Shown here: positions 15,763 to 50,346 of the stretch, piece after piece
Layout of the letters: the number at the start of each line of letters is the position of its first letter
Position numbering within the stretch: the stretch's first letter is position 1
Origin: Bacilli bacterium
Lineage (GTDB): Bacteria; Bacillota_I; Bacilli_A; RF39; UBA660
NCBI GenBank assembly: GCA_017404385.1
Contig: JAFRCK010000014.1
Coordinates: 18,588 to 82,587, forward strand
Direction: 5' to 3'
Length of the DNA: 64,000 nucleotides
Program-made: the position numbers and the translations under genes
Notes under the pieces: model-generated
What the model saw: only the letters and a program-made list of their open reading frames with translations
Databases searched by the model: none
What the model was told of the DNA's origin: nothing

Positions 15763-15784
15763 ACTAATTTAACCTCCTAACCTA

Positions 15785-16150: not shown

Positions 16151-16164
16151 AATATTACCTCCTA

Positions 16165-16278
16165 TTAACCTTGTCTTTGTTTGTGTTTAGGGTTACTACA
16201 AATAACTCTTACAACACCTTTTCTTTTAATTATTCTGCATTTATCACAGATTTTCTTAACTGAAGTTCTAACTTTCAT
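16165..16278 (-). CDS. rpmJ: 50S ribosomal protein L36
   Basis: Unlisted small [40 protein letters not shown] between infA and rpsM (37 aa, CxxC...C..H zinc ribbon). Confidence 0.85.
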
Positions 16279-16290
16279 AATTAACCTCCA

Positions 16291-16509
16291 TTATCTTTTA
16301 TTCCATATTATACGCCCATGTGTTATATCAACTGGTGATAATTCTAAAACGACTGTATCGCCTGTTAAGATGCGAATGTTATTCATTCGTATTTTACCAG
16401 AAACATGAGCTTCTACAGTATATCCATTTTCTAACTCTACCTTGAATTTTCCTCCAGGTAAAACATCAATAACTTTTCCTTCTACTTCAATAGTATCATT
16501 CTTTGCCAT
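16291..16509 (-). CDS. infA: Translation initiation factor IF-1
   Basis: [29 protein letters not shown]... is canonical IF-1. Confidence 0.92.
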
Positions 16510-27786: not shown

Positions 27787-28092
27787 CTATTTAATATTTA
27801 TTTCAACACCACTAGGTAAATCCAAACGAGTTAATGCCTCAATTGTGTCTTTACTAGGGTTATTGATAACAATTAATCTTTTGTGTGTTCTCATTTCGAA
27901 TTGTTCACGAGAATCTTTATATTTGTGAACTGCTCTTAGAATAGTGATTTTTTCAATCTTTGTTGGTAGTGGAATTGGTCCACTTACTTCTCCACCTGTT
28001 CTTTTAACAGTTTCAACAATCTTAGAAGCAGCTTGATCTATTGTTCTATGATCATATGCTTTTAAGTTAATTTGGATCTTGTTTGTCATCAT
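27787..28092 (-). CDS. rpsJ: 30S ribosomal protein S10 (start possibly at second Met, 28089)
   Basis: [34 protein letters not shown]... is canonical S10. RBS gggagg upstream. Confidence 0.92.
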
Positions 28093-28232
28093 TAATCCTC
28101 CCTTCGCCTATATCATTGTATAGACTTGCTCCGCACAAAAACCTGATTTTACCAGTTTTGTATTGATTTTAATTCGCAACTTAACCTGGTGTATCAGCAA
28201 CCTTGCACATCTTTGCCAGTCACACATAATCA
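28093..28232 (-). promoter_or_regulatory. ~140-nt 5' leader of the S10 operon, locally GC-enriched and probably structured
   Basis: Segment between the predicted promoter and the rpsJ RBS is visibly more G+C-rich than its surroundings, with internal complementarity (gcaaggttgc...ccaggttaagttgcg). Confidence 0.35.
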
Positions 28233-28261
28233 ATTTTAACACCCTTTTCCTTTAAAATCAA
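28233..28261 (-). promoter_or_regulatory. Sigma-A type promoter of the S10-spc-alpha ribosomal operon
   Basis: Minus-strand TTGATT, 17 nt spacer, TAAAAT (plus-strand aatcaa at 28256..28261 and atttta at 28233..28238). Confidence 0.5.
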
Positions 28262-28517
28262 CAACTTTTTACCATTTTTTTATTTTTTTTAACATACATA
28301 AAAAAAACAAGTTAAAAAACTTGCTTTAATTATTTAATATTTCTTCTAAATGCTTGTTGATAATACTTTTTTTATTACTTCAAATTCAGTATCAATTGAG
28401 GTTTTTAATATTTCATAATCTTTACATTCATCAGGATATTTTACTATTCTTCAACCATTAAGTATTAGTGTAGGATACTTTTTTAAAAACTCTCCTATTA
28501 TTTCAATTTTTTGAATC

Positions 28518-28548
28518 AAAAAAAAATAGAAGGATTCCCTTCTATTTT
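28518..28548 (-). terminator. Rho-independent terminator of the WG-repeat paralog A gene, overlapping its stop codon
   Basis: Stem atagaagg/ccttctat with loop attc, followed by an 8-U run on the minus strand. Confidence 0.6.
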
Positions 28549-30299
28549 ATTGAATATAATAAATCACCTGAATAATTATAATAACTATTATATATGAACA
28601 AATAATTTTGGGCTATTTTTATATCATTACTCTTAACTTCTATAGGTAATTCTTCTTTAGTAGATAGATTTAATAACACTTTTTTATCATCTTTTATAAC
28701 CAAAATAAATGGATAATCATGTGTTATATATTCTATACTCTTATATTTAGGTTCAATTATTACTTGATTTTTATTATTGATTAAACCTATCTCATCTTTT
28801 TCATTCTTAATTACAAATAACTCTTGCTTTAAATTTTCCTGAATATTTTTGAATAAATCCTTATCAATAAACTCAACTTTATTATATTTCAAAGGTACTA
28901 TTTCTCTTCCATCTTTATCTATAATTCCATAATTATTATCTTTTGCAACTATCGCATACCCATATTCATTAAAGTCTTCTATATAATCATATAACTGATC
29001 ATTTATTAAATTACCTGTTGAATTAATATAATTATATTTTTTATCACTTATTTCTACAGCCAATTTTTCATTTTTAAATTCTTTTGTTACCGGAATATAC
29101 TCTGAAAATGAACCTTTTAAATCGTTGTAGGTATATATATTATATTTATCTTCATTAGTATCAAAACTATGTGTTTTTTCTAGTAATAATCCTGAACCAT
29201 ATGTATATTCATTATTCTCACTTGTATTTATGACAGTTTTATCCTCTATATTAATATAATCTATATTCATGTCATCTTTAACGCATATTGCTATATTAGA
29301 ATTTACATCATCTACTCTTACTCTTTTATATTTATCTGTTTTATACTTAATATCATCATCTTTAATTATAAAATAAGTACTATTATCTTCTTCTTTATCT
29401 GCTTTTATATAAAATACATTATTATTTAAAACATTTATATCATTTAAAGTATATCCATATAATTCTTTACCAGAATATACATTAACTATTGTTGATGATT
29501 TATTAACCTTTACTTTAGCGTATCTATTTTCTTTATTTGTTTCACTTGTTACTTCAGAAACTTCTACATCTATCTTTTTATCATCTACTTCATCTACTTT
29601 AAAAGTATAAATCTCTTTTCCATCTGTATTTAATATTCCCATTGTTTCATCTTTTTTAAATAAAAATAATTTATTATTATATGATATCTCATCATATTCA
29701 AATCTTGTTATTTCAGATAGTTTATTATCTAAAACTGCATATTTTAAACCACTATTAGTTATTTTAGAAGCTATATAGTAATCATCAAATAAAGATATTG
29801 AATAATAGACACCAAAAGGACTATGAAGTGCTCCTTTTCCATCTAATATTCCATATAGATTATTATCATTTTTTACTATAGCTAATCCTTTATGATATTC
29901 AGTTCCATAAGAATATTTTGCTTTAACAACAATTGTACCTTTATCATCTATATAACCTACTTTTTTATTTTCTTCTATCCTTATTAAATTAGATGTATTA
30001 GCTTTACTATTATTTATAAAAATATACATAAACAAAATAGAAACAAATGCAAAAGATATTATTGGAAATATTATAGATGCTTTTTTAAATGAGACTTTAC
30101 TATTTTTAGCTGGTATATCCTTTATTTTATCATCTAATATTACTATATTATTATCAGTAATAATTGGCTCATTTGATTTTGTTAAAGGTGGAATATCCTT
30201 AATTCTATCATCTAAAATAATAATATTATTAGAAGGGTCTTCAAATGGTAAACTAGAAAAAGAAGCATCATTAATTTCTTGATTGTTTAACTCATTCAT
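28542..30299 (-). CDS. Type II membrane protein with cytoplasmic tandem IILDDRIKDIP motif and extracellular WG-like (KWG/PF14903-like) repeats; paralog A
   Basis: About 75-aa N-terminal region with two copies of (I/V)ILDD(R/K)IKDIP, then TM ASIIFPIISFAFVSILFMYIFI, then repeats such as KVGYIDDKGTIVVKAKYSYGTEYHKGLAIVKNDNNLYGILDGKG. Strong paralogy with 40530..42284. Confidence 0.5.
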   Translation of the reverse strand: MNELNNQEINDASFSSLPFEDPSNNIIILDDRIKDIPPLTKSNEPIITDNNIVILDDKIKDIPAKNSKVSFKKASIIFPIISFAFVSILFMYIFINNSKANTSNLIRIEENKKVGYIDDKGTIVVKAKYSYGTEYHKGLAIVKNDNNLYGILDGKGALHSPFGVYYSISLFDDYYIASKITNSGLKYAVLDNKLSEITRFEYDEISYNNKLFLFKKDETMGILNTDGKEIYTFKVDEVDDKKIDVEVSEVTSETNKENRYAKVKVNKSSTIVNVYSGKELYGYTLNDINVLNNNVFYIKADKEEDNSTYFIIKDDDIKYKTDKYKRVRVDDVNSNIAICVKDDMNIDYINIEDKTVINTSENNEYTYGSGLLLEKTHSFDTNEDKYNIYTYNDLKGSFSEYIPVTKEFKNEKLAVEISDKKYNYINSTGNLINDQLYDYIEDFNEYGYAIVAKDNNYGIIDKDGREIVPLKYNKVEFIDKDLFKNIQENLKQELFVIKNEKDEIGLINNKNQVIIEPKYKSIEYITHDYPFILVIKDDKKVLLNLSTKEELPIEVKSNDIKIAQNYLFIYNSYYNYSGDLLYSIK

Positions 30300-30331
30300 T
30301 ATATCCCTCCTATTCTATATAATTTTACCAC

Positions 30332-30380
30332 AAAAAAAAGAGAAAGAAAAGAAGCATAATTATTTATGCTTCTATTTTTT
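30332..30380 (-). terminator. Rho-independent terminator after the 1563-aa adhesin gene
   Basis: 10-bp stem agaagcataa/ttatgcttct (30350..30373) followed by a U-rich tract on the minus strand. Confidence 0.55.
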
Positions 30381-30386
30381 CATAGA

Positions 30387-33300
30387 TTATTTATTTTTAA
30401 AAATCTGTGGTTTATAACGTATAATTATCAATACGCCTAGAATAGCAATTATTCCTATGAATATTAAGCCATATTTAATCTTTTCCATACCAGTTGATAT
30501 AGTTACTATTAACTCAGCACTTGCGCTTGGTTTCTTAACTATTTTTTCAGTTTTTGGTTTATTCGCAATAATTGAATTTCCAACTACTGAACCATCTTCA
30601 CTGACATAGAATACAGCTACATTTAATTCTTTTTTAGGTAATTCCATTCCATTTGGTGCTTTTGTTTCAATTATTATATATTGACCTTCTTCTAAGTAGT
30701 AAACTGTAGCACTACCATTCTTAGTCTTAATTACCTTATTTGTACTATTCTTATCTACCTTATAGAAGATTTTATCTCCACTTACTTCTTCAGTAACTGT
30801 TAAATCTTCATATTTCTTATTTTGATTTAATTTTTGAAGTTTATATTCTCCTCCATCAATTAAATTATTATAATCATCATATTTATAGAAAGTAAATGGT
30901 GTTGGTTTATTAACAAGTTCTTTTAATGTATCAACTATTTCACTTTCTTTTTCTATAGTTACCATTATGAATCTATCTTCTTCTTTTTCAGGTAAACTAT
31001 AACCTTTTGGAGCTTTTACTTCTTCTATAATATAACAATGACCATAATCTAAATATTGAATTAATATTTCACCTGCTTTTATCTCAACCTTTTCATTATT
31101 TTGATTAACACTATTATCAAAATTTGCCCATGTATCAACATATTCTGAATAAGTAAGTGAAGTATCAATATCGCTACATTTATCATTTTCTTTATCAGTA
31201 CATGTAATTACTTTATCCGTGTCCCTTATTTCTCTATTATCATATACTCCATCTCGTATAGTTTTTAATTTTAGAAGTTCTTTTGGTTGAGCCATTGGAG
31301 ATAAATTCTTATCACAAGTTGTACCTTCATAAATTCTAAATTCTGCTCCCTCTAATAAATTTCCAGAATCATCATATTTTCTTATTAATAATGAAGTTGG
31401 TTTATTAGGAACATCTATTTCATCAACTTGTACTGTTTCAGTAGATACAGTAAATGAGCTTTCAGCATTTCTTCCTTTTGGTAATCTATATCCTTTTGGA
31501 GCTACTGTCTCTAGTAAAACATAATTATATCCACCTTGTAGATATCTAAATACTAATTTACCATGATATGGATGTAAATCAGTAACATTATCAGTTTCTT
31601 TTTCTATATTAAGTATTGCTCTATATACTTCAACATTAGGATCTTCTTCATCACCAGTTATAATTCCTCTTTGATTAAATTTAATTAGTGTCATTCCAGC
31701 AGCTTGTCTTTCAGCAGCATTAACATAATCCCCAGGGTGACATTCTTGACCTTCTGGACATCTATATACTTCAAATGTAGTTGTTTCATCATCTATTAAA
31801 TAACCATATTTGCTATCTCTCTTTTCAAAAGTAACTCTAGATGGTTTATCTAATATTTCTACTGTTGTTGATGGTTTTGGTTGATCTTGATCATCACAAC
31901 ATGATAAATCTATTTCTCTAGTTCTTTCTTCTTCAGTTTCTGGTAATATAAATACTGATTTACCAGTAACAGCAACTTCTTCTATATAGTATTTTCTTCC
32001 TCTACATAGATGAGTTAAATGTATATGTCCTCCACAAGTATGTAATTCTTGTGTTATAGTTAAATCACTTATTAATGAACTATCTGTGCCTTCAGGAATA
32101 TATCTATATTCTGAATAACTTTCTTCAGTCTTACAAGTTCCTACATCTCCAACTTTAGCAAAATCAACATATACTTTTTCATTATTTTGTCCTCTATAAT
32201 AAACCTTGAATGTTATTCCATCAAACGCACTTATTTCTTCTTCATTTTCAAATTTTACTTCTTCATTTGGAATTACATTTCCATAGAAATCTTTCTTAGT
32301 AAATTCTACTTCAGTTGGTCTATTATCCAATGTTTGAGTAGCAACAGTTGTTATTTCACATACATTATTACCTAGTTCATCTTTACCTGTAGATTGACTT
32401 GTTGAACATTTATCAATAGTAAATGAATAACTATTTGTGTTGTTACCATACTTAGGTGAATAGAATCCATAACATATATTACTTGATGGACTTGTACATG
32501 TATCTTCACAACAACAATCGTTTTCCTTAATTGTATATTTACCTACTGGTAAATGATATACATATATTTTTCTTGAACTATTTAAGTTCAATGTTGTAGT
32601 TGGAGTTCCAGTTACTCCATCTATATTATTTCCAGCATATTCATATACGCCATCAGATGTTTTGATAACACTTACTGCATTACCATTACTATCATATATT
32701 GTAAATGGTATTTTCTTTAATTCTTCTGTTGACATTGTTTTCCAAATGTCATCTAAACCATTTTCTTCACTAACTGTTTTAGTAAATTCAAATTCTGTTT
32801 TATAGTTTTTATATTTTTCAGCATCATTAAATGATTTTCTTGATTTACTAGAATCATTAACAATAAATGTCTTAGTTGTTTCTTCACCAAATGTATGGTA
32901 ATCAAGTGGTTTAGTTTCTGTTACTTTATAAGTTTCAGCAGGAAGTTTTACTATACATACTTCACCTATATTTACGCCATTAGATTCATCTGTTGTACTC
33001 GAAACTAATTTAGATGCTTCTGATTTATTTGTTGTTTCACCATCATATATATAGCACCCTTTATTACCATTTTCATTTTCTTTTTCTGATTTTACTTTTA
33101 TATATTGAGTAGTATCATTTTCACCAACATAAGAAGCAATAAATTCAGCTCCTCCTTTAGGAGTTTCACCATCTTCTAATACCTTATAAAAATTCATTAC
33201 TAATGGCGTATTAATTAATTTATTACAATCTGATGATGATGTACATGTTTTTCCTTTTATACTAGTTTGTGGTTTAATGCCTGTTATTTGTCCATTTTCA

Positions 33301-35078
33301 AATGCATAACCATCTAACGATCTTAATTCCTTTGCTTTATAAGATGTATCATTATTTATTTTAGGAATTTGTACTATACAAATTCTTCCATTAGAATCAG
33401 TCTTTAATGTTGAACCTGAAGTTGTTTCATCTCTATATATATAGCATCCATCATCATCAGGTGTAGAATATACTCTAACATAATTTGATGATCCAGTTGC
33501 CTGAACTTTAAATTTAATATCAGATAATGGTTCCCCCTTCTCATTTTCTTTATAGAAAGAAATATAATAAGGTGAGTTTGTTACAGTCACTTTTTTACAA
33601 GTAGAAGTACTTCCAGTTACTATCTCTCTACATGTACCATCTATTTTATACTTTGTACTTTCTGCACCAGACCAAGATTCTTTTGCATAATATTTCGTAC
33701 CATTATTTAGTCCAGAGAATTTTGCAATTCCACTAGCATTAGTTTGTTTAGTTTGTAATACAGTTCCACTACAATTGTTTGTAGAATCATCATCACCATC
33801 ATCTTCATACAAGTTAAAAGTTACTCCTTCAAGATTATTACCTTGACCATCAGTTTTTGTAATAGAAATACAGCCATTATTTTCAATATCATTAGTTGCC
33901 GTTACTCTCTTATAGTATACTTCAACAGTACTATCATACTTATAACCTGATTGTGAACCTAGATTAATAACTCCATACACACATTTTCCATTTAAATCTG
34001 GATCTGAAGATGGACAGGCATTAGATTCGTTCTCAGTATCAGTTGTAGTTGTGACATTATACTCGACCGTATAATAAGTATCGGTACCTGTTTTTTTTGC
34101 AGGTTTTTCCCAAATACAATATTTACCTTTTGGATCGAGTAAAGCTTCATATTCTACATTACTACCTGAACCAGTTCTTTTTAGTCCTAAATAATAATGG
34201 CTTCCCGAATGATATCCAGTGTTAGCATTATTTGATGCAGCAACTAAATGAGAAGCATCATGAAGATCCTCACATTTTCCGTTATTTGCTTTATATAATT
34301 TAAATATTCTTTCTTCACCATCATCATCAGCTGAATCCTCATAAGCTTTAACTACATCTATATATACTTTTGGTTCTTCATAAGTCCAAAATATAATATC
34401 TTGATAATTTGTTGATGATGTATCATTGCTTGTATAATATACTTTAAAATTTGCAAATTTCTTTTTGTCTAATACCAATCCGTTTTCAGCATAATGTTCT
34501 GATAATTGATTTTGCATAACTTGTAAACCATCTAATTGAGCAGCAGTTAATCCTCTATCTCCTTGGTATCCTCTACCATGATATGCCAAAGCTATAAGAG
34601 CATGTGAATATGCATATAATTGATTATCACTCTCTGTCTCAGAATCAGTCATTATATTATTGCTTTTAAATAACCCTATTATTGTATCCTTATTTTCTTC
34701 CCAACCAGGACCACCATATAAGAAATATAAAAAATACTTATGTCTAGTTTCATTCCATTTTATTAAATCACCATCATTGTTATATGATTCTGTATGACCT
34801 GTAATAGTTTGATTACCTGGTGCTTTTTCATTAGGGTCTAGACAAAATGCATTATTTGTTCCTAAATCATTTGGAACATTTGTAACGCTAAATACTGGTG
34901 TCCATCCTTTAGGATCTCTATGACCATATTTAATTTGAGAAATTTTAGTATTGTGATATAAATATCCTGTAATAGTTTCATCTTCTGCATTAACACTACC
35001 AATATTTAATGCAAATGCAGTAATTAATAGACCTATTATTGTAATACCTAAAATTATAAATTTTAATTTCTTTTTCAT
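30387..35078 (-). CDS. Giant (1563 aa) cell-surface adhesin: signal peptide, candidate thioester (TED-like) N-terminal domain, ~8 Cna-B/SpaA-like stalk domains, C-terminal TM anchor (no LPXTG)
   Basis: Signal MKKKLKFIILGITIIGLLITAFALNIGSVNA. Motif NNAFCLDPNEKAP (Cys79) and downstream NYQDIIFW, reminiscent of TED CxQ/TQxAIW motifs. Repeated modules with G(A/V)xFxIY(E/K) and Y(x)LxExxAPxGY(x)LP signatures. C-terminal hydrophobic helix plus RYKPQIFKNK. Confidence 0.6.
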   Translation of the reverse strand: MKKKLKFIILGITIIGLLITAFALNIGSVNAEDETITGYLYHNTKISQIKYGHRDPKGWTPVFSVTNVPNDLGTNNAFCLDPNEKAPGNQTITGHTESYNNDGDLIKWNETRHKYFLYFLYGGPGWEENKDTIIGLFKSNNIMTDSETESDNQLYAYSHALIALAYHGRGYQGDRGLTAAQLDGLQVMQNQLSEHYAENGLVLDKKKFANFKVYYTSNDTSSTNYQDIIFWTYEEPKVYIDVVKAYEDSADDDGEERIFKLYKANNGKCEDLHDASHLVAASNNANTGYHSGSHYYLGLKRTGSGSNVEYEALLDPKGKYCIWEKPAKKTGTDTYYTVEYNVTTTTDTENESNACPSSDPDLNGKCVYGVINLGSQSGYKYDSTVEVYYKRVTATNDIENNGCISITKTDGQGNNLEGVTFNLYEDDGDDDSTNNCSGTVLQTKQTNASGIAKFSGLNNGTKYYAKESWSGAESTKYKIDGTCREIVTGSTSTCKKVTVTNSPYYISFYKENEKGEPLSDIKFKVQATGSSNYVRVYSTPDDDGCYIYRDETTSGSTLKTDSNGRICIVQIPKINNDTSYKAKELRSLDGYAFENGQITGIKPQTSIKGKTCTSSSDCNKLINTPLVMNFYKVLEDGETPKGGAEFIASYVGENDTTQYIKVKSEKENENGNKGCYIYDGETTNKSEASKLVSSTTDESNGVNIGEVCIVKLPAETYKVTETKPLDYHTFGEETTKTFIVNDSSKSRKSFNDAEKYKNYKTEFEFTKTVSEENGLDDIWKTMSTEELKKIPFTIYDSNGNAVSVIKTSDGVYEYAGNNIDGVTGTPTTTLNLNSSRKIYVYHLPVGKYTIKENDCCCEDTCTSPSSNICYGFYSPKYGNNTNSYSFTIDKCSTSQSTGKDELGNNVCEITTVATQTLDNRPTEVEFTKKDFYGNVIPNEEVKFENEEEISAFDGITFKVYYRGQNNEKVYVDFAKVGDVGTCKTEESYSEYRYIPEGTDSSLISDLTITQELHTCGGHIHLTHLCRGRKYYIEEVAVTGKSVFILPETEEERTREIDLSCCDDQDQPKPSTTVEILDKPSRVTFEKRDSKYGYLIDDETTTFEVYRCPEGQECHPGDYVNAAERQAAGMTLIKFNQRGIITGDEEDPNVEVYRAILNIEKETDNVTDLHPYHGKLVFRYLQGGYNYVLLETVAPKGYRLPKGRNAESSFTVSTETVQVDEIDVPNKPTSLLIRKYDDSGNLLEGAEFRIYEGTTCDKNLSPMAQPKELLKLKTIRDGVYDNREIRDTDKVITCTDKENDKCSDIDTSLTYSEYVDTWANFDNSVNQNNEKVEIKAGEILIQYLDYGHCYIIEEVKAPKGYSLPEKEEDRFIMVTIEKESEIVDTLKELVNKPTPFTFYKYDDYNNLIDGGEYKLQKLNQNKKYEDLTVTEEVSGDKIFYKVDKNSTNKVIKTKNGSATVYYLEEGQYIIIETKAPNGMELPKKELNVAVFYVSEDGSVVGNSIIANKPKTEKIVKKPSASAELIVTISTGMEKIKYGLIFIGIIAILGVLIIIRYKPQIFKNK

Positions 35079-35104
35079 AATAAACTCCTTTCTTTATTTA
35101 TATA

Positions 35105-35140
35105 TCTAGAAATATACTATTCAAATAGTATATTTCTAGA
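35105..35140. repeat. 36-bp perfect palindrome (17-bp arms, 2-nt centre) between the two giant genes, overlapping the stop of the upstream gene
   Basis: tctagaaatatactatt-ca-aatagtatatttctaga. Seen directly. Not followed by a U-run on the minus strand. Confidence 0.7.
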
Positions 35141-38100
35141 GTTTACTTTAATAACAGGTCTTACTTCTTTAAGTGCAGAAGCAATATCTGATTGAATACC
35201 TGATGTACTAACGTACGAAGCTTTATTGTATACTGAAGTCCCAGCTGTAGGTACTCCATACATATCATAAACTGGTCTTGTATCATCAGAACTTTCTAAC
35301 CAATATGGTTGAGATCCTGTAAGCCATTCTATATTACTTAATGAACTATTTGTTATTCTTGTATATTCTTCTATTGTTAATAACCTAACTCTTGATTTAA
35401 CAAAATCTCCTGATTGACAAGTTCCTGAAATACTACCACCATATGATGCTATATCTAGTCCAGAAGCATCATTACATACATAATTATCTTTTAATATTCC
35501 ATAATCTAATGCTAAACCATAAATATTATTATTTAAATTACTATTTATATTTGAATCAGCCCATTTATAAACATCATTTGTCGAATTGGTATGTCCGCTT
35601 TTCATTGAAATAGATCCAGAATCAGCAAGTAATGTTATATCTTGAGTTCCATCATCCATATTTTCTGTATTGATAACATGCCATCCTAATCCTGCATAAT
35701 CAATACTATCTCCTATGACATAAGTATTTGAATTATTATATTCACTTTCAGTTGGTTTTTCATTTGGTTTATAAGGGGCCATATCAGCAATTGAAACAGT
35801 ATTTATAAAAGTTTTACCATCTTCTCTAGCTGGCATAAATAATACTATTTGTAAATACTTAGTCTCTCCTGGTTTAATTAATTCAGAATCTAATGTTGTA
35901 GCATATGCCTTTCCATTAACCATTGTCCAACCTTTATTTAATTCTTCGTTTGGATCAAATACTAAACCATCTGGAATACTTTCCTCAAGTTCTGTTACAT
36001 AACCTGGTGTTACTGAATTATTTGTAATTGATATTCCATAATATACTTTAGCTGTTGCTAATTGACTATTTCTAATATCTAACAATACTTTAGATAAATT
36101 ATTATAATCCTTAACAGCTACACTTCCTTTATAGAATAATTCTGTTTTAGTAATATACTTCTTTATATCAAATCCAAAACTATACCTTGGAATTAATCCC
36201 ATATCATAGTTTTCTAATTTTGTTATTTCTCTAGTTAATCTTATACCAAATGGATCATCTGGTGTTCTTTTATTACTAATTCTTGCTACAGTATCAGATA
36301 CTTTATAAGCATCTGAATCTATAGTTTCATTATCTGATGCATATCTTAAAGTTAGATCATATTGTTTTCCATCATAGTTTAAGTCTACATAGTATTTGCC
36401 GACATCCAAATTTTTAAATTCATATCTTCCATCTTTATTAGTAGTAGATTCAGCTACTTTAGTATGTTCTTCTCCATCTACTTTATATAAAGTAACGGGT
36501 ACATTTGATACATACTTATCGCCTTCATCTTGTACTCCATTTTCATTTATATCATTAAATACTTTTCCTGAAATACTTCTTCCTACTACATTAATAGCTA
36601 TCTTATTTGATGTATTCTTACTATATTGAGCATTTCCTCCAATAAAATCATTAATATATTTATCTGAATAATTATTGTTAGTCGGTTTAATTATTACCTC
36701 AATTGCCTCAGTACCTGTATGAGGTTGCATTGATATTTCAGCTACTCTTATAGCTCTTACTGATTTATAATTTTCAGTAATATCACTACACTCTATCCAT
36801 TCATTTTTAGAACTATCTATTTCTTTAGATAACTCTTCATATTTTTGAGTCGAACAATATATTTTTGCTCCTCCTAATGAAGCAGGTACATTTAATTTAA
36901 CTTCATATGTTCCATTAATAACAGAACCATTAGTATCACCATTAGATGGTAATATATCTATTATTTCATAGTCATTTACTATTCTTGTTGTATTATTAAA
37001 TACTTTTAATAAGTAACTAAATTCTGTATTCTTTTCAACTTTAGAACCAGCTGCTCCAACTGTTTGTTCAACAAATACATTTTCAGAGCCATTTGCATAT
37101 ATAGTAAATTCTTTAATTGATTCACCAAATAAACTATTATCAACTTCCTTATTTACATTTAAAGCTCTCATTTGGCTTATAACTACTACTGGTGTAGCAG
37201 GTTCAGAAATCATACTGCTTAATTTTGTTTTAAATTGAATACCACTATTTTCAACATTAGGTTTAGTATATGGTAATTGATATTCTAGATATGTATTATT
37301 ACCCATCTTGTATCTATTAACCAAATACTTATCAGTATCTGCATCTGGAATAAATTCTAACTCTCCAGGTAATTCTACAGCAATACCTACATATTTAACA
37401 AACCAAACATCATCTGCTCCTACTTTTTCATTTTCATCTGTAATAATTGGTTTAATATTATATATAATTGTTTCATTTTCACTTGTATTATATGTTGTTT
37501 TCATTTTTCCATCTGATGTTTTATTCAACACAGAAATTTCTTGATCTGAAGTATAATTAGCTATTCTAATTGAATCAGCATAATCAACATGATTTACATT
37601 TATTACTGAATTGCCATATATTTCTGGTAAAGTATAATTGTTAGGATCAACTACACTTGTTCCATTTGGATAATAATAATGTAATACTGTATCATAATCT
37701 GATGATGATATAACTGTTGCTGCTTGATAAACTCTTGTTATATCAGCAACATTTCTAACTCTTAATTTCACTTTAACATCTATTGTTACATTATCAGGCA
37801 AATTAGTACCTTGATTTGTTTGTATAATTATTTTGGTTATAGGTTTTTCTTTTCCTTGCTCATCTTTAGCATCATTAATCTTTGTATATTCTTCTTCATC
37901 CGTACTTATATTTTTAACACATGGGCTACCATATATATTTAATATTTGATCATTAGATAAATTAGAAAGATTTAAATTAGAGCAAGCAGTTGAAATTGCA
38001 TTTTTATCTTCTTCATTTAATCTTGAGTCTACAGCTATTACTGAATAACTTGAATTATTATAATCACCTGTTAAGAATTTAATTTCAAAATCATCGGCGC

Positions 38101-39679
38101 TTATGTTTTCACATTTTTTATCATCACATGTTAATTCTATATCAACTGATTCTTTGTCGCTGTAATCAAACACTCTAAATGCATTAGGATTAATTTTTAT
38201 TACTTCTTTAATTCCTTCATCAGATGCTGATTTTTTATAGTTGAAAGTTGTTTTATAAATAACATCTGATCCTTTTGATAAAGAACCAACTTTGTTTTCT
38301 GAGTTAATCTTCTTGTCACCGGTATAGAATCCTGTTGAGAAAGAATGATCTCCTGATTGATAATATTCATTTATCGCACTACCAGTTGATGTATTAACTT
38401 GATATGCTGTTTGATTTGTACCAGTAGATACTATTGAATTCATTTCATAGCTAACATTTATATTATTTTTTCCATCTTCATTTACTCTAGGTGAGAATAC
38501 AGTAAATGCATATGTTCCAATATAATATTTATTTTCTATTTCTTGATCTGTACTAGTTAGTACTGGAAAATCATATGTTGGATTATAATTAGCAATTGTT
38601 GTTTTATATTTATTATTTTCTATAACAACACTCATATCTCCAGCTGATTTAACTTCTTTTTGTGTTTTATTTGAATCAGCAGTACTATATGGTGCATTAA
38701 CTAATACTGATTCTATTTCTTCAACTTTATTTGCTCCATATAATCTAGCCCACTCATTTTTTAATACTACTTGATCATTTCCATTTTGCGATATTGTCAT
38801 ATCAAATGTTATGTTTCCAGTAGGTATATCTAATCCCTTAATTCCCTTATAAACATCGCCTTCAACATATAATCCAGAAACTACAGTAACATATCTTCCA
38901 GTTTTATTATCATAAGTAGCTTTTTGACTTTCTGATTCTGATAATGTTTCTGATTTTAATACCGCTTGTTTAGATGATACTACTGTAGGCATATAGTTTG
39001 TAAAATCAGATGTTGATCTATATGTTCCATCATCATAAACATAATTATTTGCTGTTTCTGTATTTTTTCCTAAAGTAATTCCAGCTTCTTGATCTGTACT
39101 TTCTTTAATAGTAAATTTAGGATTAATCATTGTTCCATTTGGTGCTCCTAACACATAAAGCGTAATACTCTTTTGTGAGTTACCCATTGAATCAATTCCG
39201 TCAAAAGAGAATTTATGGCTAGTTTCACCAGCTACAGTTTTTTTATCAAATGAAATATATTTAGCTTCATCTTCTGTTAATTCAACTGTTATGTCTACTA
39301 CTCTATTTTGAAAATCAGAATTTCCTTCTTTAGCAGAAATTAAAAAATCAAAATTATAAGTAATACTATCAAATGATCTTACTATTCTATTTAAACCACT
39401 TGAATCATAACCAGGAAGGAAATCTTCTGTAGAACTTGGATCTAATACTGTATTACCGCTTCCATCATATTGATCGTAGTTTGTACTACCAGTAATAATT
39501 GATTCGATTTTAGCCGTCTTTATTTTTATTTTATTGTCATCCTGATCTGCAAACGCAATTTTATATATAAAAACACTGCATATCACTGCTATTATAAAGA
39601 CAGCCCCTCCTATAAATATTTTTTTCTTTTTATTTTCTTTCATACGCTCACCTATTTTCCTACTTTTTATCATATACAA
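35117..39679 (-). CDS. Giant (1520 aa) secreted surface protein with SdrD-B-like (Cna-B) and DUF11-like domains and an uncharacterised ~200-aa C-terminal domain; no recognisable cell-wall/membrane anchor
   Basis: Signal/anchor MKENKKKKIFIGGAVFIIAVICSVFIYKIAFA|DQ. GKVFNDINENGVQDEGDKYVSNVPVTLYKVDGEE...DGRYEFKNLDVGKYYV matches the SdrD B-repeat pattern. No LPXTG or C-terminal TM. Confidence 0.55.
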   Translation of the reverse strand: MYMIKSRKIGERMKENKKKKIFIGGAVFIIAVICSVFIYKIAFADQDDNKIKIKTAKIESIITGSTNYDQYDGSGNTVLDPSSTEDFLPGYDSSGLNRIVRSFDSITYNFDFLISAKEGNSDFQNRVVDITVELTEDEAKYISFDKKTVAGETSHKFSFDGIDSMGNSQKSITLYVLGAPNGTMINPKFTIKESTDQEAGITLGKNTETANNYVYDDGTYRSTSDFTNYMPTVVSSKQAVLKSETLSESESQKATYDNKTGRYVTVVSGLYVEGDVYKGIKGLDIPTGNITFDMTISQNGNDQVVLKNEWARLYGANKVEEIESVLVNAPYSTADSNKTQKEVKSAGDMSVVIENNKYKTTIANYNPTYDFPVLTSTDQEIENKYYIGTYAFTVFSPRVNEDGKNNINVSYEMNSIVSTGTNQTAYQVNTSTGSAINEYYQSGDHSFSTGFYTGDKKINSENKVGSLSKGSDVIYKTTFNYKKSASDEGIKEVIKINPNAFRVFDYSDKESVDIELTCDDKKCENISADDFEIKFLTGDYNNSSYSVIAVDSRLNEEDKNAISTACSNLNLSNLSNDQILNIYGSPCVKNISTDEEEYTKINDAKDEQGKEKPITKIIIQTNQGTNLPDNVTIDVKVKLRVRNVADITRVYQAATVISSSDYDTVLHYYYPNGTSVVDPNNYTLPEIYGNSVINVNHVDYADSIRIANYTSDQEISVLNKTSDGKMKTTYNTSENETIIYNIKPIITDENEKVGADDVWFVKYVGIAVELPGELEFIPDADTDKYLVNRYKMGNNTYLEYQLPYTKPNVENSGIQFKTKLSSMISEPATPVVVISQMRALNVNKEVDNSLFGESIKEFTIYANGSENVFVEQTVGAAGSKVEKNTEFSYLLKVFNNTTRIVNDYEIIDILPSNGDTNGSVINGTYEVKLNVPASLGGAKIYCSTQKYEELSKEIDSSKNEWIECSDITENYKSVRAIRVAEISMQPHTGTEAIEVIIKPTNNNYSDKYINDFIGGNAQYSKNTSNKIAINVVGRSISGKVFNDINENGVQDEGDKYVSNVPVTLYKVDGEEHTKVAESTTNKDGRYEFKNLDVGKYYVDLNYDGKQYDLTLRYASDNETIDSDAYKVSDTVARISNKRTPDDPFGIRLTREITKLENYDMGLIPRYSFGFDIKKYITKTELFYKGSVAVKDYNNLSKVLLDIRNSQLATAKVYYGISITNNSVTPGYVTELEESIPDGLVFDPNEELNKGWTMVNGKAYATTLDSELIKPGETKYLQIVLFMPAREDGKTFINTVSIADMAPYKPNEKPTESEYNNSNTYVIGDSIDYAGLGWHVINTENMDDGTQDITLLADSGSISMKSGHTNSTNDVYKWADSNINSNLNNNIYGLALDYGILKDNYVCNDASGLDIASYGGSISGTCQSGDFVKSRVRLLTIEEYTRITNSSLSNIEWLTGSQPYWLESSDDTRPVYDMYGVPTAGTSVYNKASYVSTSGIQSDIASALKEVRPVIKVNSRNILFE

Positions 39680-39812
39680 TTATAATACTATTTTTTTCAT
39701 TTTTTTTCAAGAAAAATAACAAAAAAAAGGAAAAAAGGAGAACTCCATAATTAAGCATTTACTTTTTTTATTTGTTGTGTTAAAATTTGATTGAATAATA
39801 GGGAGATAGATT

Positions 39813-40502
39813 ATGGAAAAGAAAAAAGAAACTAATGTTAAAAAAAATGATATAAAAACAACACAAACAGATATAAACATAAGAAAAAAAATGACTGTTG
39901 GGCTTGCAATACTAATACTATTTGTATTTGTATTAATACTAAGATCAACTTTCTTTAAAAATTTTGCAGAAATGCATTTGGATACTAATAAAAAGGAAAT
40001 TTTTTCTATTAAAGATTTAACCGTTGGAAATCTAAAATATGGAAATTCTGAAGAAACAGTAAAAAAAGAATTAGGAAATCCTAAATCTGAAAAAGAAAAA
40101 ATAATTGGTCAATATAATTATAAAATTCTTGAATATAATGGATTAAAAGTAACTCTTAAAGAAAATTATGACAATTATATTCTTACAAAAGTTAATATAA
40201 CATCTAATAAATATACAGGCCCTAGAGATTTAAAAGTCGGAAATAAAATAACAAAGGCATTTAGTAATTTTAATGTAGAAAACTCCACAGGAGCATATTT
40301 ATATGGTAATCATGTAAAAGAGGCGTTAAAACAAAAAGAAGTTACAGAAAATGTATACTTCGGAATCAGAACATCAGAAAATATTTTATATGTTAACAGA
40401 GATGAAATAGTTGATGGAATTAAAACTAATATAGCTAAATTAGATATAAAATATAGTGGTGGAAAAATTAATGAAATAATTTGGTCTTATGACATAGAAT
40501 AA
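39813..40502 (+). CDS. Type II membrane protein of unknown function (convergent with the giant gene)
   Basis: K-rich N-terminus, TM MTVGLAILILFVFVLILRSTFF, ~180-aa extracytoplasmic domain. RBS gggag before the ATG. Confidence 0.4.
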   Translation: MEKKKETNVKKNDIKTTQTDINIRKKMTVGLAILILFVFVLILRSTFFKNFAEMHLDTNKKEIFSIKDLTVGNLKYGNSEETVKKELGNPKSEKEKIIGQYNYKILEYNGLKVTLKENYDNYILTKVNITSNKYTGPRDLKVGNKITKAFSNFNVENSTGAYLYGNHVKEALKQKEVTENVYFGIRTSENILYVNRDEIVDGIKTNIAKLDIKYSGGKINEIIWSYDIE

Positions 40503-40503
40503 A

Positions 40504-40538
40504 TAAAGATACATCATTTGATGTATCTTTTATTTTAA
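40504..40538. terminator. Bidirectional terminator between the 229-aa gene and the WG-repeat paralog B gene
   Basis: 11-bp stem aagatacatca/tgatgtatctt with loop tt, followed by ttatttt. Overlaps the stop of the minus-strand gene. Confidence 0.55.
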
Positions 40539-42284
40539 TTCATATAATATTTTTCCCTGATAGCTATAATAACTATTATTACATATAATACTATTTTGAG
40601 TAATAATTACTTTTTCAGTACCTAATTCAATTGGAATTTCTTCCTTTTTAGCTAAATCAATTAACACTCTATTATTATCTTTAATGCCTATTATAAATGC
40701 ATATTCATCAGTTATAAATTCAAATTTATCATATTCATTTTCTAATAATATATTATTTTTACTATCAATAAGTCCATATTTATTATTATCATCTTTAATA
40801 ATAAATAATTCTTTTTTTAATAAATCTTTTAAATTATTAAAGAATATATCATTAATTAGTTCTATATCCATATAATTTGCTTTTACAACATCTTTTCCCT
40901 TTTTATTAATAATTCCATATTTCCCATTCTCTTTAATTTTTGCATAACCTGAATTATTAAAATCTGTTACCTCTTCATACCACTTGTTATTTATTAATTT
41001 ACCTTTTTCATCTAAATAATTCTTTCCATATTCAGTTTCAATAGCTAATCTTTTATTGCTATATATTCCTGAAATTGGTTTATATTCATTAAATAAATCT
41101 AGTTCTTTTTTTGAAGAAATAATTCTATAATTACTATTATCATTTTCTAATAATAAACCAGAACCATATGTATAAATAGCTTCTTTATTCTCATTAATAA
41201 TGCTTTGATCATTTAGATTAATATAACTAACACTACTATCATCTTTAATACAAATTGCTATATCTGAATCAACATCATCAACCTTAATTAGTTTATATTT
41301 ATCAGTTTTAAGTTTTACTTTACCATCTTTAATTACTATGTATGTATTGTTACCAAATTCATTTTCTGTTTTTAAGTAAAAGACATTGTTGTCGGATACA
41401 AATATATCTTCTAAAGTATAACTATAAACATCTTTTCCTGTGGATAGATTAACTATTAAAGAAGATTTATTTATTTTAACTTTTGCATATCTATCTTTTG
41501 ATTCTAAGTTAGATACATTCGATAATTCTATTTCAATTTTTTTGTCATCCACTTCATCTACTTTAAATGTATATATTTCATCACCATTTGAATCTAAAAT
41601 ACCCAACGTTTCACCAGATATAAATGAATAATACCCATCTTTTGAATACGTGATATTATCATACACAAATCTAGTTAACTCTGATAATTTATTATTAAGC
41701 AAAGCGTATTTTAAACCATTATTTGTTATTTTAGAAACAATATAAGTACCTTCTTTATAATCCATTGAATAATATGTTCCAAATGGTACTTTTGATACAC
41801 CTTTACTATTTAGTATTCCTATTAAATTATTATCATTTTTTACTATTGCTAAACCATTATGATATTCAGAACCATATGCATATTTAGGTTTAACAACTAT
41901 GGTTCCATCATTATCTACATAACCTATTTTTTTATTTTCTTCAATTTTTATTAGATTAAATGTATCTGCCTTGCTATTATTAATAAATATATACATAAAT
42001 AGAATTGATACAAATGCAAAAGTAAATACCGGAAAAATAATTGATGTTTTTTTAAATGATATCTTGCTATTTTTAGCAGGTATATCTTTTATTCTATCAT
42101 CCATAATAATTAAATTATTATCAGTTACAATTGGTTCTATTGATTTAGTTAAAGGTGGAATATCTTTAATTCTATCATCTAAAATAATTATATTATTAGA
42201 AGAGTCTTCAAATGGTAAATCCGATAATGAATTAGTATGTTCTAAATGATCATCAGAAAATGGTATATTATCAAATTCATTCAT
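40530..42284 (-). CDS. WG-like-repeat type II membrane protein, paralog B of 28542..30299
   Basis: Same architecture and motifs (IIILDDRIKDIPPLTKS, IIMDDRIKDIPAKNSK, TM SIIFPVFTFAFVSILFMYIFI, KIGYVDNDGTIVVKPKYAYGSEYHNGLAIVKNDNNLIGILNSKG). About 60-65% identical by eye to paralog A. Confidence 0.5.
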   Translation of the reverse strand: MNEFDNIPFSDDHLEHTNSLSDLPFEDSSNNIIILDDRIKDIPPLTKSIEPIVTDNNLIIMDDRIKDIPAKNSKISFKKTSIIFPVFTFAFVSILFMYIFINNSKADTFNLIKIEENKKIGYVDNDGTIVVKPKYAYGSEYHNGLAIVKNDNNLIGILNSKGVSKVPFGTYYSMDYKEGTYIVSKITNNGLKYALLNNKLSELTRFVYDNITYSKDGYYSFISGETLGILDSNGDEIYTFKVDEVDDKKIEIELSNVSNLESKDRYAKVKINKSSLIVNLSTGKDVYSYTLEDIFVSDNNVFYLKTENEFGNNTYIVIKDGKVKLKTDKYKLIKVDDVDSDIAICIKDDSSVSYINLNDQSIINENKEAIYTYGSGLLLENDNSNYRIISSKKELDLFNEYKPISGIYSNKRLAIETEYGKNYLDEKGKLINNKWYEEVTDFNNSGYAKIKENGKYGIINKKGKDVVKANYMDIELINDIFFNNLKDLLKKELFIIKDDNNKYGLIDSKNNILLENEYDKFEFITDEYAFIIGIKDNNRVLIDLAKKEEIPIELGTEKVIITQNSIICNNSYYSYQGKILYELK

Positions 42285-42314: not shown

Positions 42315-42353
42315 TAACACAAAAAAGAAATAAGTTATAGTGAACTATAACTT
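42315..42353 (-). terminator. Rho-independent terminator of ftsK, overlapping its stop
   Basis: Stem aagttatag/ctataactt with loop tgaa, then a U-rich tract on the minus strand. Confidence 0.5.
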
Positions 42354-44553
42354 ATTCATTATCTGATTCTAATTCTACTAATACTTCACGTGGTTTAGAT
42401 CCTTGTTGTGGACCAACAATGCCTCTTTCTTCTAGTTCATCAACTAATCTTGCTGCCCTATTATAGCCAACTTTGAATCTTCTTTGTATAAGTGATGCTG
42501 ATGCTTTTCCTGTGGAAACAACAAACTCTACTACTTCATTATAAAGTGGATCATCATTATCAACATCATCTTTATCAATATCTGAATGTGTAGAACTACT
42601 AGTATCTAAATTAAATTTATCATCATAAGAAGCCATATGTTGATCACATACGAAATTAACTAATTTTTGAATTTCTTCTTCTGAAACAAATGCACCTTGA
42701 ATTCTTTGTGGTATAGATTCACCCATTGGTAAGAATAACATGTCACCTTTACCTAATAATTTTTCAGCACCACCCATATCAAGGATAGTTCTACTATCTA
42801 TTTGAGATGAAACTGCAAATGATATTCTTGATGGTATATTTGCTTTTATAACACCAGTAATAACATTTGTAGATGGTCTTTGAGTTGCAACTATCAAATG
42901 TATACCAGCTGCTCTGGCCATTTGTGTTATTCTCATAATTGAATCTTCAACTTCATTTTTAGCTACAACCATCAAGTCAGCTAACTCATCAATAATGACA
43001 ACTATGTATGGTAACAACGGTAATTTTGATTCTTCAGGCAAGCTCTGATTTTTCTTTTCAAGATATGCATTATAACTCTCAATATTTTTAGTATGAGAAT
43101 CTTCAAATTTATCATATCTATCCATCATTTCTGCCACTACCCTTTGTAAAGCTATACTAGCTTTTTTTGGATCTGTAACAACTGGTTGTAATAAATGTGG
43201 TATACCATTATACATACCAAGTTCAACCTTTTTAGGGTCAACCATTATTAATTTTACTTCATCAGGTCTAGCTCTCATAAGAATTGAAGCTAATATACAG
43301 TTAATACAAACTGATTTACCACTACCTGTAGCACCCGCTACTAGTAAATGTGGTGTCTTGTTTATTTCACAATATCTTGGCGTACCCATAATATCTTTAC
43401 CTAAAGCAACCATTAATTTATTACTTTGTTTTTCTTTTGGAAAGCTAGATATTATTTCTCTAAACGCAACCATACTATTAACTTTATTTGGTATTTCTAT
43501 ACCTACAGTGCTCTTACCTGGGATAGGAGCTTGTATTCTAACATCTTTTGCAGCTAAAGCTAATGCAATTTCACTATGAATACTTGTTATTTTACTAGTT
43601 CTAGTTCCTGATTTTATTTCTAATTCATATTGCGTAACAGAAGGCCCAACATGCACTTCAACTACCTTAGCAAACACTTCAAAATCTTTTAATACTTGTT
43701 CTAGAATGCCTATATTCTTTTTAATTTCAACTTCATCATCTTTTCTATTTGTCTTCTTAGCAGCATCTAATAAAGTAATACTAGGAAATTGATAATTAGC
43801 ATATAAATTACTAGCTGGTTTTTGATTGTTAGAGCTTTCTTTTATAGCTGCTTCATATTCCATTTCCTTTTCTTTTGTATTTGTTAATTCACTAAGCGAA
43901 GAAACTTTAACCTTGTTTTCTTCGTGTTCCTCTTCTTCTTCTTCGTCATAGTATTCATCATCATTTTCATCATCATCATCATTACTTTTTCTATTAGCAA
44001 TTTTATCTTTAATAGTTTGAAAAATATCAGAAAATGAAATATTTGAGAATAATATTAAACCAATTAACATTAATACAGAAATAACTATAATACTTCCAAC
44101 TTCACCTAATAAAACATAAAAAGAAGATATAGTTAAAGCTCCGATTACTCCACCACCATTAAATGCTATTTTATCTTTTATGCATTTACTAAATTCATTA
44201 ATTGTTTCTTTTAATGTACCATCTATAGTTGGTTTATCACCTAAATAATTCATGTGAGCTAAAGCTAATAATCCTACTATAAAAATAATTAATCCAATAA
44301 ATCTCGCACTTAAAAATTTTGGTTTCTTTCTTTTAATTAACATATAAGAACCAATTATTATTAATATACTTAAAAATATAAAATCAAAAGTGCCCATTAA
44401 AAACATTGCAAATCCTTTAAATGCAGTTCCTAGTATATTAGCTTTATACCCTAAAAAGCCTATTACGCCTATAATAATTAATAGAATACCCACTAATTCT
44501 ATTGGAAATCTAGATTTAGATGATTCACTACTACGTTTTTTCTTTTTAGCCAC
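42352..44553 (-). CDS. ftsK: DNA translocase FtsK/SpoIIIE
   Basis: 4 N-terminal TM helices, acidic linker, motor domain with Walker A GATGSGKS, C-terminal winged-helix gamma domain (ASASLIQRRFKVGYNRAARLVD). Confidence 0.9.
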   Translation of the reverse strand: MAKKKKRSSESSKSRFPIELVGILLIIIGVIGFLGYKANILGTAFKGFAMFLMGTFDFIFLSILIIIGSYMLIKRKKPKFLSARFIGLIIFIVGLLALAHMNYLGDKPTIDGTLKETINEFSKCIKDKIAFNGGGVIGALTISSFYVLLGEVGSIIVISVLMLIGLILFSNISFSDIFQTIKDKIANRKSNDDDDENDDEYYDEEEEEEHEENKVKVSSLSELTNTKEKEMEYEAAIKESSNNQKPASNLYANYQFPSITLLDAAKKTNRKDDEVEIKKNIGILEQVLKDFEVFAKVVEVHVGPSVTQYELEIKSGTRTSKITSIHSEIALALAAKDVRIQAPIPGKSTVGIEIPNKVNSMVAFREIISSFPKEKQSNKLMVALGKDIMGTPRYCEINKTPHLLVAGATGSGKSVCINCILASILMRARPDEVKLIMVDPKKVELGMYNGIPHLLQPVVTDPKKASIALQRVVAEMMDRYDKFEDSHTKNIESYNAYLEKKNQSLPEESKLPLLPYIVVIIDELADLMVVAKNEVEDSIMRITQMARAAGIHLIVATQRPSTNVITGVIKANIPSRISFAVSSQIDSRTILDMGGAEKLLGKGDMLFLPMGESIPQRIQGAFVSEEEIQKLVNFVCDQHMASYDDKFNLDTSSSTHSDIDKDDVDNDDPLYNEVVEFVVSTGKASASLIQRRFKVGYNRAARLVDELEERGIVGPQQGSKPREVLVELESDNE

Positions 44554-46381: not shown

Positions 46382-46813
46382 TTATTTTTTGACAACTGCT
46401 TTTTCTTCTTCATCCATTTTTTTAGAATATTCATGTAACTCAATTATTTCTTTAATTGATTTTAAAGTTTCTTCTTTTGTATATCCTTGTTTTAATCTAA
46501 CATTAGATATAAGTTTTAATAATTTAGCAAAATCAGGTCTTTTATCACCTATAAATTCAGATGCAACTAATTCTGCTGATTCTAATGAATCATCATTTTT
46601 GTAGTAAGTTGCATAAGAAAAATTAGGCATTTTTTCACCAGAAAAAACTTTTTGATATTCTGATGCTGGTACTAAAAAATACTCATATAATGATAAATTA
46701 TCATATTCCTTTTCTTTAGTTTGATTTTCTTTCTTGCTTACTGATCTAATAATCTTTTCTTTCCCATTTTCATCAACTATTTTTATTTTAAAACATTGAA
46801 TTCTTTTTATCAA
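46382..46813 (-). CDS. Hypothetical cytoplasmic protein
   Basis: 143-aa ORF with no recognisable family. Hairpin plus U-run terminator just downstream (about 46355..46386). Confidence 0.35.
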   Translation of the reverse strand: MIKRIQCFKIKIVDENGKEKIIRSVSKKENQTKEKEYDNLSLYEYFLVPASEYQKVFSGEKMPNFSYATYYKNDDSLESAELVASEFIGDKRPDFAKLLKLISNVRLKQGYTKEETLKSIKEIIELHEYSKKMDEEEKAVVKK

Positions 46814-46834
46814 GAATGTTGATGATTATTTACA

Positions 46835-47671: not shown

Positions 47672-47700
47672 CTAATAAATTATATGCAAAAAAAAAGGAA

Positions 47701-48579: not shown

Positions 48580-48581
48580 AA

Positions 48582-50300: not shown

Positions 50301-50346
50301 ATAACACCTCTATTGTATTAATATAATACCACATTTTAAAACTTTT

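Follow-up and report, generated by a model that had tools for sequence, protein, structure and literature searches.

A probable fibrillar adhesin cassette, variable between species, beside a resident WG-repeat gene at the ftsK–rpsJ junction of a gut Bacilli bacterium

In characterised TIE adhesins a thioester domain (TED) attacks a nucleophile on the ligand and binds it covalently. These proteins (SfbI, Cpa, BaTIE and SaTIE; PMC4450167, PMC6194298) combine a signal peptide, an N-terminal TED with its Cys and Gln, a stalk of CnaB/SpaA domains and a tripartite C-terminal signal, and the residues that form the bond lie in the motifs [YFL]C(phi)(zeta) for Cys and (phi)Q(zeta)(phi)(phi) for Gln (PMC6194298). 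Further described relatives by architecture are SdrD and other Sdr/MSCRAMM proteins, the Enterococcus aggregation substance PrgB, antigen I/II and pilin-like proteins with a terminal DUF6273 domain (PF19789). Here we describe a locus between ftsK and rpsJ, the first gene of the S10 operon, in a 64,000-nt stretch of Bacilli bacterium DNA (contig JAFRCK010000014.1; hereafter the window), which has ~25% G+C and genes almost all on the minus strand. The interval holds five open reading frames (ORFs) in the order WG_B, small229, G2, G1 and WG_A: two giant genes, a small membrane-protein gene and two WG-repeat paralogs. An earlier reading of the sequence alone had found these five ORFs and their flanks where they are given in Table 1. 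The locus is probably a species-variable chromosomal cassette of fibrillar adhesins, which lies beside a resident WG gene and represents a rearranged copy of a cluster of the wider lineage.

The variability of the site is evident from the ftsK neighbourhoods of 34 species, which were compared by mapping the window proteins onto them (loci of relatives are cited by handles such as L007). WG is the gene adjoining ftsK in every congener sampled. The five closest species (L007, L008, L009, L010 and L022; FtsK 76-89% identical) carry ftsK, a single WG gene and different cargo, and no homologue of G1 or G2 was found at the ftsK site of any of them. The cargo consists of a sigma-r4/RpoA-CTD fusion protein and a 196-aa ORF in L007, four small genes including one for an SH3_3 protein in L010, one 263-aa gene in L022, dus and lysS with no rpsJ next in L008, and in L009 a 261-aa gene followed by an SdrD_B-like ORF of another kind (at least 782 aa), which the contig end truncates. 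The cargo is followed by rpsJ in L007, L010 and L022. More distant relatives (FtsK 64-69% identical) have neither WG nor rpsJ after ftsK. The same five genes in the same order were found in L044, which was reached through a G1 homologue; its proteins are 67-76% identical to those of the window, and the C-terminus of its FtsK is 97% identical. The five-gene arrangement is thus present in two of the seven congeners sampled and is therefore species-variable and not core, as the sequence-only reading had suspected.

Two observations concern the site itself. The fusion protein in the gap between WG and rpsJ of L007 (14089-15531) is a 480-aa protein joining sigma-70 region 4 to an RNA polymerase alpha C-terminal domain, an unusual combination. 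In L016, a different 1546-aa SdrD_B-type giant with the same type of tail as G1 lies directly after ftsK (12203-16843). Genes for surface proteins may have landed repeatedly at the junction downstream of ftsK.

The cassette is also found away from ftsK. The small gene, G2 and a G1-like giant are found together at no fewer than six other chromosomal sites that lack WG, among them a serS...holA site with two arrangements (L041-L046) and further sites in L048, L047, L051 and L052, the last two having G2 and then directly the small gene. Each cassette copy lies between housekeeping genes. A small229 homologue adjoins G2 or a G1-like giant in L041, L044, L045, L048, L051 and L052. A metagenome search baited with an alignment of the small protein gave 19 loci, some of them from human gut, and since many are near-duplicates they represent roughly five lineages. 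A G1-like giant stands directly upstream of the small gene in all 17 loci with upstream DNA, and G2 is also present in 13 of the 15 with enough flank. No WG gene accompanied the cassette at any of the other sites examined, nor in the 19 metagenome loci. In the canonical arrangement a ~180-aa ChW-like membrane protein comes first, and the G1-like giant, the small229-like gene and G2 follow in this order. The window cassette has its small gene inverted, G2 ahead of G1 and no ~180-aa gene, and it is therefore considered a rearranged copy of a lineage-wide cluster. The working unit is probably small229 with G2 and G1, and not five genes.

The ~180-aa gene, which is absent from the window, L044 and L041, has a weak ChW-repeat match and lies immediately 5' of each canonical G1-like giant, often with overlapping stop and start codons.

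G1 is the member of the cassette that most resembles the TIE adhesins. Its signal peptide covers aa 1-31, and SpaA (PF17802) was matched in five stretches of the full-length protein and in all five consecutive fragments. The N-terminal fragment reached 28.9 bits for TED_2 (PF20610), whose cut-off is 27 (E = 1.2e-6), and three of five homologues also matched the model; a profile of five homologues aligned with the TED_2-annotated head of a 1604-aa giant in L048 at 99.3% in hhalign, Cys on Cys and Gln on Gln. Cys79 and Gln226 are invariant in the five homologues, and their surroundings, F-C79-L-D and Y-Q226-D-I-I, satisfy the bond-forming motifs given above (PMC6194298). The profile evidence suggests that the G1 head is probably a thioester domain, which would form an intramolecular thioester. 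Only four relatives of G1 were recovered from 5.8 billion proteins, using the full-length query; a query of residues 1-400 alone returned nothing, not even itself. A PDB sequence search with G1 gave no match. Compared with the characterised TIE adhesins, G1 is 1.5 to 3 times longer, its TED match is marginal, no middle TQXX(phi)W motif is evident, ISTG takes the place of LPXTG in the anchor, and its coupling to a second giant and small membrane proteins is not described for TIE proteins.

The C-terminus of G1 runs through ELIVTISTGMEKIKYG into a membrane helix and a basic end, with seven residues between ISTG and the helix. Against LPXTG_anchor (TIGR01167) it scored 13.3 bits with a cut-off of 15.9, and the homologous tails of the giants L048_1604 and L016_1546 scored 16.5 and 25.9. 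We read this tail as a degenerate LPXTG-type sorting signal, which may be cleaved. Distant giants with the same tail show I[SQ]TG, ~9 residues, a membrane helix and a basic end, while a W[IV]xKTG variant ends the Flg_new-repeat proteins of relatives (genes in L041 and L045). Unrelated surface proteins of the lineage share a proline-less tail of [IV]x[SQK]TG, ~9 residues (xxxI[KR][YW]G), helix and basic end. This [IV]x[SQK]TG tail may be a lineage-specific sortase motif.

G2 belongs to a larger family, with 73 full-length homologues (35-97% identity) that are all ~1,500 aa and all unnamed. The two giants had been given as 1563 and 1520 codons; the former length stands, whereas 1520 is that of the longest ORF of G2. 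The start is almost certainly Met13 (39643), because the gene call on an identical contig and all homologues start there, and the predicted product is then 1508 aa. The hydrophobic N-terminal segment would be a signal peptide or a signal anchor, and at its end is an AxA-like site whose Ala44 is nearly invariant. The AlphaFold2 (AF2) model of residues 46-1035 is all beta (pLDDT 80.6), and Foldseek matched it to the Ig-like domains of PrgB, antigen I/II C123, integrin legs and macroglobulin domains. The best of these matches (PrgB, 8beg, at 2.6e-21; 3qe5 and 6e3f) would imply a tandem Ig-like rigid stalk as in PrgB and antigen I/II; the likeness is at fold level only, with 7-9% identity and low whole-model TM-scores, and G2 differs in having no polymer-adhesin or variable-region head and in its anchoring. 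Pfam fragment scans of the N-terminal 1,000 aa gave sub-threshold noise only, and a PDB sequence search, even with a 46-sequence profile, found the SdrD_B domain only. With SdrD and other Sdr/MSCRAMM proteins G2 shares this one calcium-binding-type B domain and an Ig-like stalk, but it has no Ser-Asp repeats, LPXTG or recognisable N2-N3 A region, and its putative head is C-terminal and not N-terminal.

A DUF11-like segment after SdrD_B in G2 is sub-threshold, and a Pfam scan of residues 1131-1520 gave no match to DUF6273 at E <= 1; none of the Pfam families was matched directly by the last 225 residues. An exhaustive profile search with the C-terminal 225 aa collected 123 proteins, the distant ones among which are N_methyl type IV pilin-like proteins with C-termini that pass DUF6273. 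As in those pilin-like proteins, the predicted G2 head would sit at the distal end of a filament; it differs in being carried by a Sec-exported giant and not a pilin, and in staying under the Pfam threshold. No C-terminal anchor, sorting signal or SD repeats were found in the G2 sequence.

The third member, small229, has an extracellular domain of ~170 aa, and comparison with Pfam, NCBIfam and PDB gave no family match (sub-threshold noise only in the fragment scan). Its gene was previously described as convergent, which is correct in relation to WG_B; it is divergent from the giants, standing head to head with the G2-G1 unit at ~170 bp from the likely start.

Bacilli of the RF39 type are uncultured and widespread in the guts of humans and ruminants, and their genomes are reduced and probably reliant on other microbes. 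The host of the window is most likely an uncultured, peptidoglycan-containing gut member of this order. An identical FtsK copy is present on 16 metagenome contigs, the nearest relatives are "Bacilli bacterium" metagenome-assembled genomes from ruminant gut, and farther ones are labelled "uncultured Tenericutes" and Clostridium sp. CAG:433; in GTDB, the family CAG-433 belongs to order RF39 (PMC8035907). The window encodes D-Ala-D-Ala ligase (Ddl) and PolC, and the host is therefore taken to have a wall and to belong to the Firmicutes. That membrane anchoring reflects a host without a wall, like the Mollicutes, was considered and rejected on account of the Ddl in the window and the sortases of relatives.

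Sortase genes are encoded elsewhere by the relatives. No Sortase domain was found in any cassette copy or its immediate flanks, and the earlier statement that the locus encodes no sortase, transposase or integrase is correct. It does not follow that the system is sortase-independent, since G1 has a degenerate LPXTG-type signal and relatives have sortases elsewhere.

From these features one may outline how the cassette would work. G1 would be exported by Sec and held at its C-terminus, either through sortase linkage by an enzyme encoded elsewhere or by a plain membrane anchor, and its stalk of SpaA/CnaB-type domains would carry the TED_2 covalent-capture head ~1,300 residues from the anchor. 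G2 would form a second fibre of ~1,500 aa with an Ig-like stalk, SdrD_B and a DUF6273-like head at the free C-terminus; as it lacks a C-terminal anchor, either its N-terminal helix, left uncleaved, or a partner would have to retain it. Since the linkage of small229 to the giants is tight and co-diverging, small229 is the best candidate for a tether or assembly factor, and it is proposed as the partner holding G2 on the cell. The predicted role of the cassette is to fix the cell to the surface of the host, of food particles or of neighbouring cells.

Several findings weigh against this reading and must be noted together. The TED_2 match of G1 is marginal, and it was seen when the N-terminus was scanned by itself but was missing from the scan of the whole protein. 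For the G1 head, the AF2 model built on a 5-sequence alignment has a pLDDT of 52 and is unusable, and the TED fold is a prediction from profile evidence. The G1 tail stays under the LPXTG_anchor cut-off and its motif has no proline; no sortase was seen among the window ORFs, nor a TLxTC signature. The link of G2 to DUF6273 is transitive, with no direct match. Finally, L049, L050 and the P0067 contig carry G2 on its own, and small229-like genes without a nearby G2 are found in L018, L039, L062 and L068, so the proposed tether is not obligatory.

The giants had been regarded as surface-protein genes, and this is supported by the SpaA, TED_2 and SdrD_B matches and the signal peptides. That the combination is not a described system holds only in so far as the cluster is un-named; its parts are standard Gram-positive adhesin modules. 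We conclude that a three- or four-gene cluster built from familiar adhesin parts appears to be undescribed. A conserved and rapidly diverging pair of 1,500-residue fibres, one of them with a head that probably binds covalently, is the main candidate attachment device of RF39-type Bacilli, and the G2 family, the small229 family and the I[SQ]TG tail are testable handles for annotation, strain typing and expression of binding domains. One may speculate further that the conserved four-gene cluster, with its ChW-like protein and a G1-like giant ending in I[SQ]TG, encodes a two-fibre surface organelle of RF39-type Bacilli that had not been recognised before, in which small membrane proteins tether or assemble the giants, small229 holds G2 and the proline-less [SQK]TG represents a new class of sorting motif; we consider this extended version unlikely.

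The strongest competitor to an adhesin directed at the host is a cassette for contact between bacteria, that is aggregation, stabilisation of mating pairs or attachment to a partner microbe. PMC8092201 describes a Class II TED adhesin as required for efficient conjugation in Bacillus subtilis. That description, together with the PrgB-like stalk predicted for G2, whose best structural match is an aggregation substance, keeps contact between cells a candidate. The probable reliance of the reduced RF39 genomes on other microbes points the same way. Against it, there are no conjugation genes in the window, and the adjoining FtsK is a complete protein of the chromosomal type, in which a gamma domain is present besides the 4TM, alpha and motor domains. 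We regard contact between bacteria as possible, yet clearly on the unlikely side.

The two WG genes bear on the next alternative and on the fibrillar adhesin cassette itself. WG_A and WG_B align end to end with 56% identity (E = 0) and match WG_beta_rep (PF14903) with 78.8 and 50.2 bits respectively, against a cut-off of 25.6. In WG_B the cytoplasmic N-terminus, which contains an internal repeat, is joined through one membrane helix to an extracellular WG_beta_rep domain. The architectures are similar and the orientation is the same, in agreement with the sequence-only reading, although "near-identical" does not extend to the DNA, which is merely 71-81% identical without long identical tracts; the two copies are direct repeats 11,967 bp apart. 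In a neighbour-joining tree the only WG gene of L007 falls with the copies nearer to rpsJ (WG_A and its orthologue in L044; bootstrap 95.5%), while the ftsK-proximal copies (WG_B and the upstream copy of L044) form a sister clade (81.5%). The L007 protein is likewise 61% identical to WG_A versus 51% to WG_B. From its grouping in the tree, WG_A is therefore the resident orthologue, and the branching places WG_B as an older, more diverged paralog that predates the split from L007. On this comparative evidence, the WG pair is a resident gene with its duplicate and stands outside the module.

Some features of the WG paralogs are recorded in their own right. Within the cytoplasmic N-termini of both proteins (first ~75 codons) a motif is repeated in tandem, NNIIILDDRIKDIPPLTKS / DNNIVILDDKIKDIPAKNSK. 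Over their first ~150 codons the two genes have 80-82% DNA identity versus about 60-70% in the rest, and this could reflect constraint or old gene conversion with slight A-B homogenisation. Recent gene conversion between the WG genes, and repeats of mobile elements, were looked for and none were found.

A horizontally acquired island or mobile element could have brought the cassette together with a foreign WG copy, for instance by single-crossover integration of a circle into the resident WG gene. Direct-repeat paralogs around an insert are the scar expected of such an event, the WG_B clade branches outside the clade that unites the A copies with L007, and the cassette is found at several unrelated chromosomal sites across the lineage. 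The locus nevertheless has no integrase, transposase, tRNA gene or terminal inverted repeats: integrase and transposase domains were sought with Pfam and NCBIfam, boundary repeats were not found, and the sole long repeats are the diverged WG genes. The G+C content of the locus (0.27-0.30) is inside the range of the window, and phage and plasmid collections gave trivial domain-level matches only, without relatives. The chimera predicted by the model is missing as well. WG_A and WG_B as reciprocal chimeras from single-crossover integration were rejected because sliding-window protein and codon comparisons show no chimeric junction, and the L007 gene as a B/A chimera left by deletion was rejected because its identities are A-like throughout, including third codon positions at the 5' end. 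An acquired island is improbable, and by its gene content the locus is neither a recognisable mobile island nor a sortase-pilus operon.

It had also been proposed that the five genes form one self-contained module, the WG paralogs being functional partners or brackets such as anchors or recombination handles. In its favour, two species, those of the window and L044, share the arrangement, the giants are enclosed by the paralogs as direct repeats, and all five products are membrane or surface proteins. A bracketed module is not borne out by the comparisons, since five species without giants have one resident WG gene beside ftsK and the giants with the small gene occur elsewhere without WG, namely at every other site and in 19 of 19 metagenome loci; each WG gene moreover has its own separate terminator. 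The comparative data largely refute the five-gene module, which is now very improbable. Paralogs that flank a locus beside a conserved operon invite this misreading, and here they are better understood as a resident gene and an older duplicate.

The locus could also be an operon for a pilus built by a sortase, G1 supplying the polymerised shaft or the base pilin and G2 the adhesin at the tip. This is suggested by the SpaA domains, a weak match of G1 to the SpaH/EbpB major-pilin model NF033902, its LPXTG-like tail and the adjacency of both giants on one strand, but is the least credible alternative, since no class C sortase lies in or near any cassette copy, G2 is without any sorting signal, the NF033902 match reaches 56 bits against a cut-off of 95, and proteins of ~1,500 aa suit single-molecule fibrils far better than pilin subunits.

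The coordinates of the locus and its flanks are collected in Table 1. From the positions of the hairpins the transcription units are WG_B, small229, G2-G1 and WG_A. The ftsK terminator reported at ~42.3 kb is real; a simple terminator scan missed it because it is AT-rich. The promoter-like site of G2 is TTGAAA-17-TATTAT (39710-39682, minus strand), a consensus match only. Downstream, rpsJ is 100% identical to the L007 and L010 copies and is followed by rplC, rplD, rplW and rplB in this order.

Table 1. Coordinates of the ftsK–rpsJ locus, its domains and signals, and of related features in other loci (positions are those of the window unless a locus handle is given).
Feature	Position	Strand	Description
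ftsK	42352-44553	-	Pfam FtsK_4TM, FtsK_alpha, FtsK_SpoIIIE, FtsK_gamma; NF007615 at 1.5e-127
ftsK intrinsic terminator	~42321-42353		AT-rich hairpin and T-run, read directly from the sequence
WG_B	40530-42284	-	584 aa; PF14903 at 2.6e-13
Bidirectional terminator hairpin, small229/WG_B junction	40505-40530	both	11-bp stem
small229	39813-40502	+	229 aa; single-pass membrane protein
Divergent intergenic region small229/G2	39644-39812		promoter-like site for G2
G2	35117-39643	-	1508 aa from Met13; longest ORF to 39679 = 1520 aa
G2 Ig-like beta-sandwich stalk (predicted)	36575-39544		
G2 SdrD_B domain	36278-36574		residues 1036-1134; Pfam 1.4e-18; PDB SdrD 5e-15
G2 C-terminal DUF6273-like head (putative)	35120-35794		last 225 residues
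Perfect 16-bp hairpin	35105-35140	-	overlaps G2 stop codon, just 5' of G1 ribosome-binding site; no T-run
G1	30387-35078	-	1563 aa; SpaA at 2.4e-37
G1 TED_2 thioester domain (probable)	~34374-34985		Cys79 codon 34842-34844, Gln226 codon 34401-34403
G1 C-terminal tail	30390-30515		ISTG tail
Terminator-like hairpin 3' of G1	30350-30373	-	
WG_A	28542-30299	-	585 aa; PF14903 at 2.9e-22
Terminator 3' of WG_A	28523-28548	-	
rpsJ	27787-28092	-	first gene of S10 operon; downstream housekeeping flank
Tail of L016 giant	L016 ~16700-16843		
Tail of L048 giant	L048 ~9020-9140		
~180-aa ChW-like gene	L063 2003-2542		
~180-aa ChW-like gene	L055 2205-2765		
~180-aa ChW-like gene	L048 3742-4326		
~180-aa ChW-like gene	L047 14656-15210		
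~180-aa ChW-like gene	L045 9450-9986		

The perfect 16-bp hairpin between the giants is sequence-identical in the window, in L044 (8003-8037) and in L041 (9930-9964), loci that are otherwise ~77% identical or less. It was seen only where G1 comes after G2, and L063 and L051, in which G2 is last, have ordinary terminators instead. The hairpin may be an attenuator or an RNA-stability element.

The leader region of the S10 operon (28093-28330) contains a second terminator and a promoter-like site. A search of the whole 64 kb with Rfam at gathering thresholds gave zero matches; neither a tRNA nor a ribosomal-protein leader was found, the region before the S10 operon included. Elsewhere in the window, a 375-aa ORF (9527-10654) has an S26 signal-peptidase domain in its C-terminal half only, and a 472-aa ORF (3322-4740) combines polysaccharide deacetylase and Bact_surface_Ig-like domains. 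Upstream of rnjA (46382-51378), ORFs of 143, 278, 292 and 343 aa without Pfam match lie around ezrA, and this run of ORFs is conserved in the identical contigs L001 and L002.

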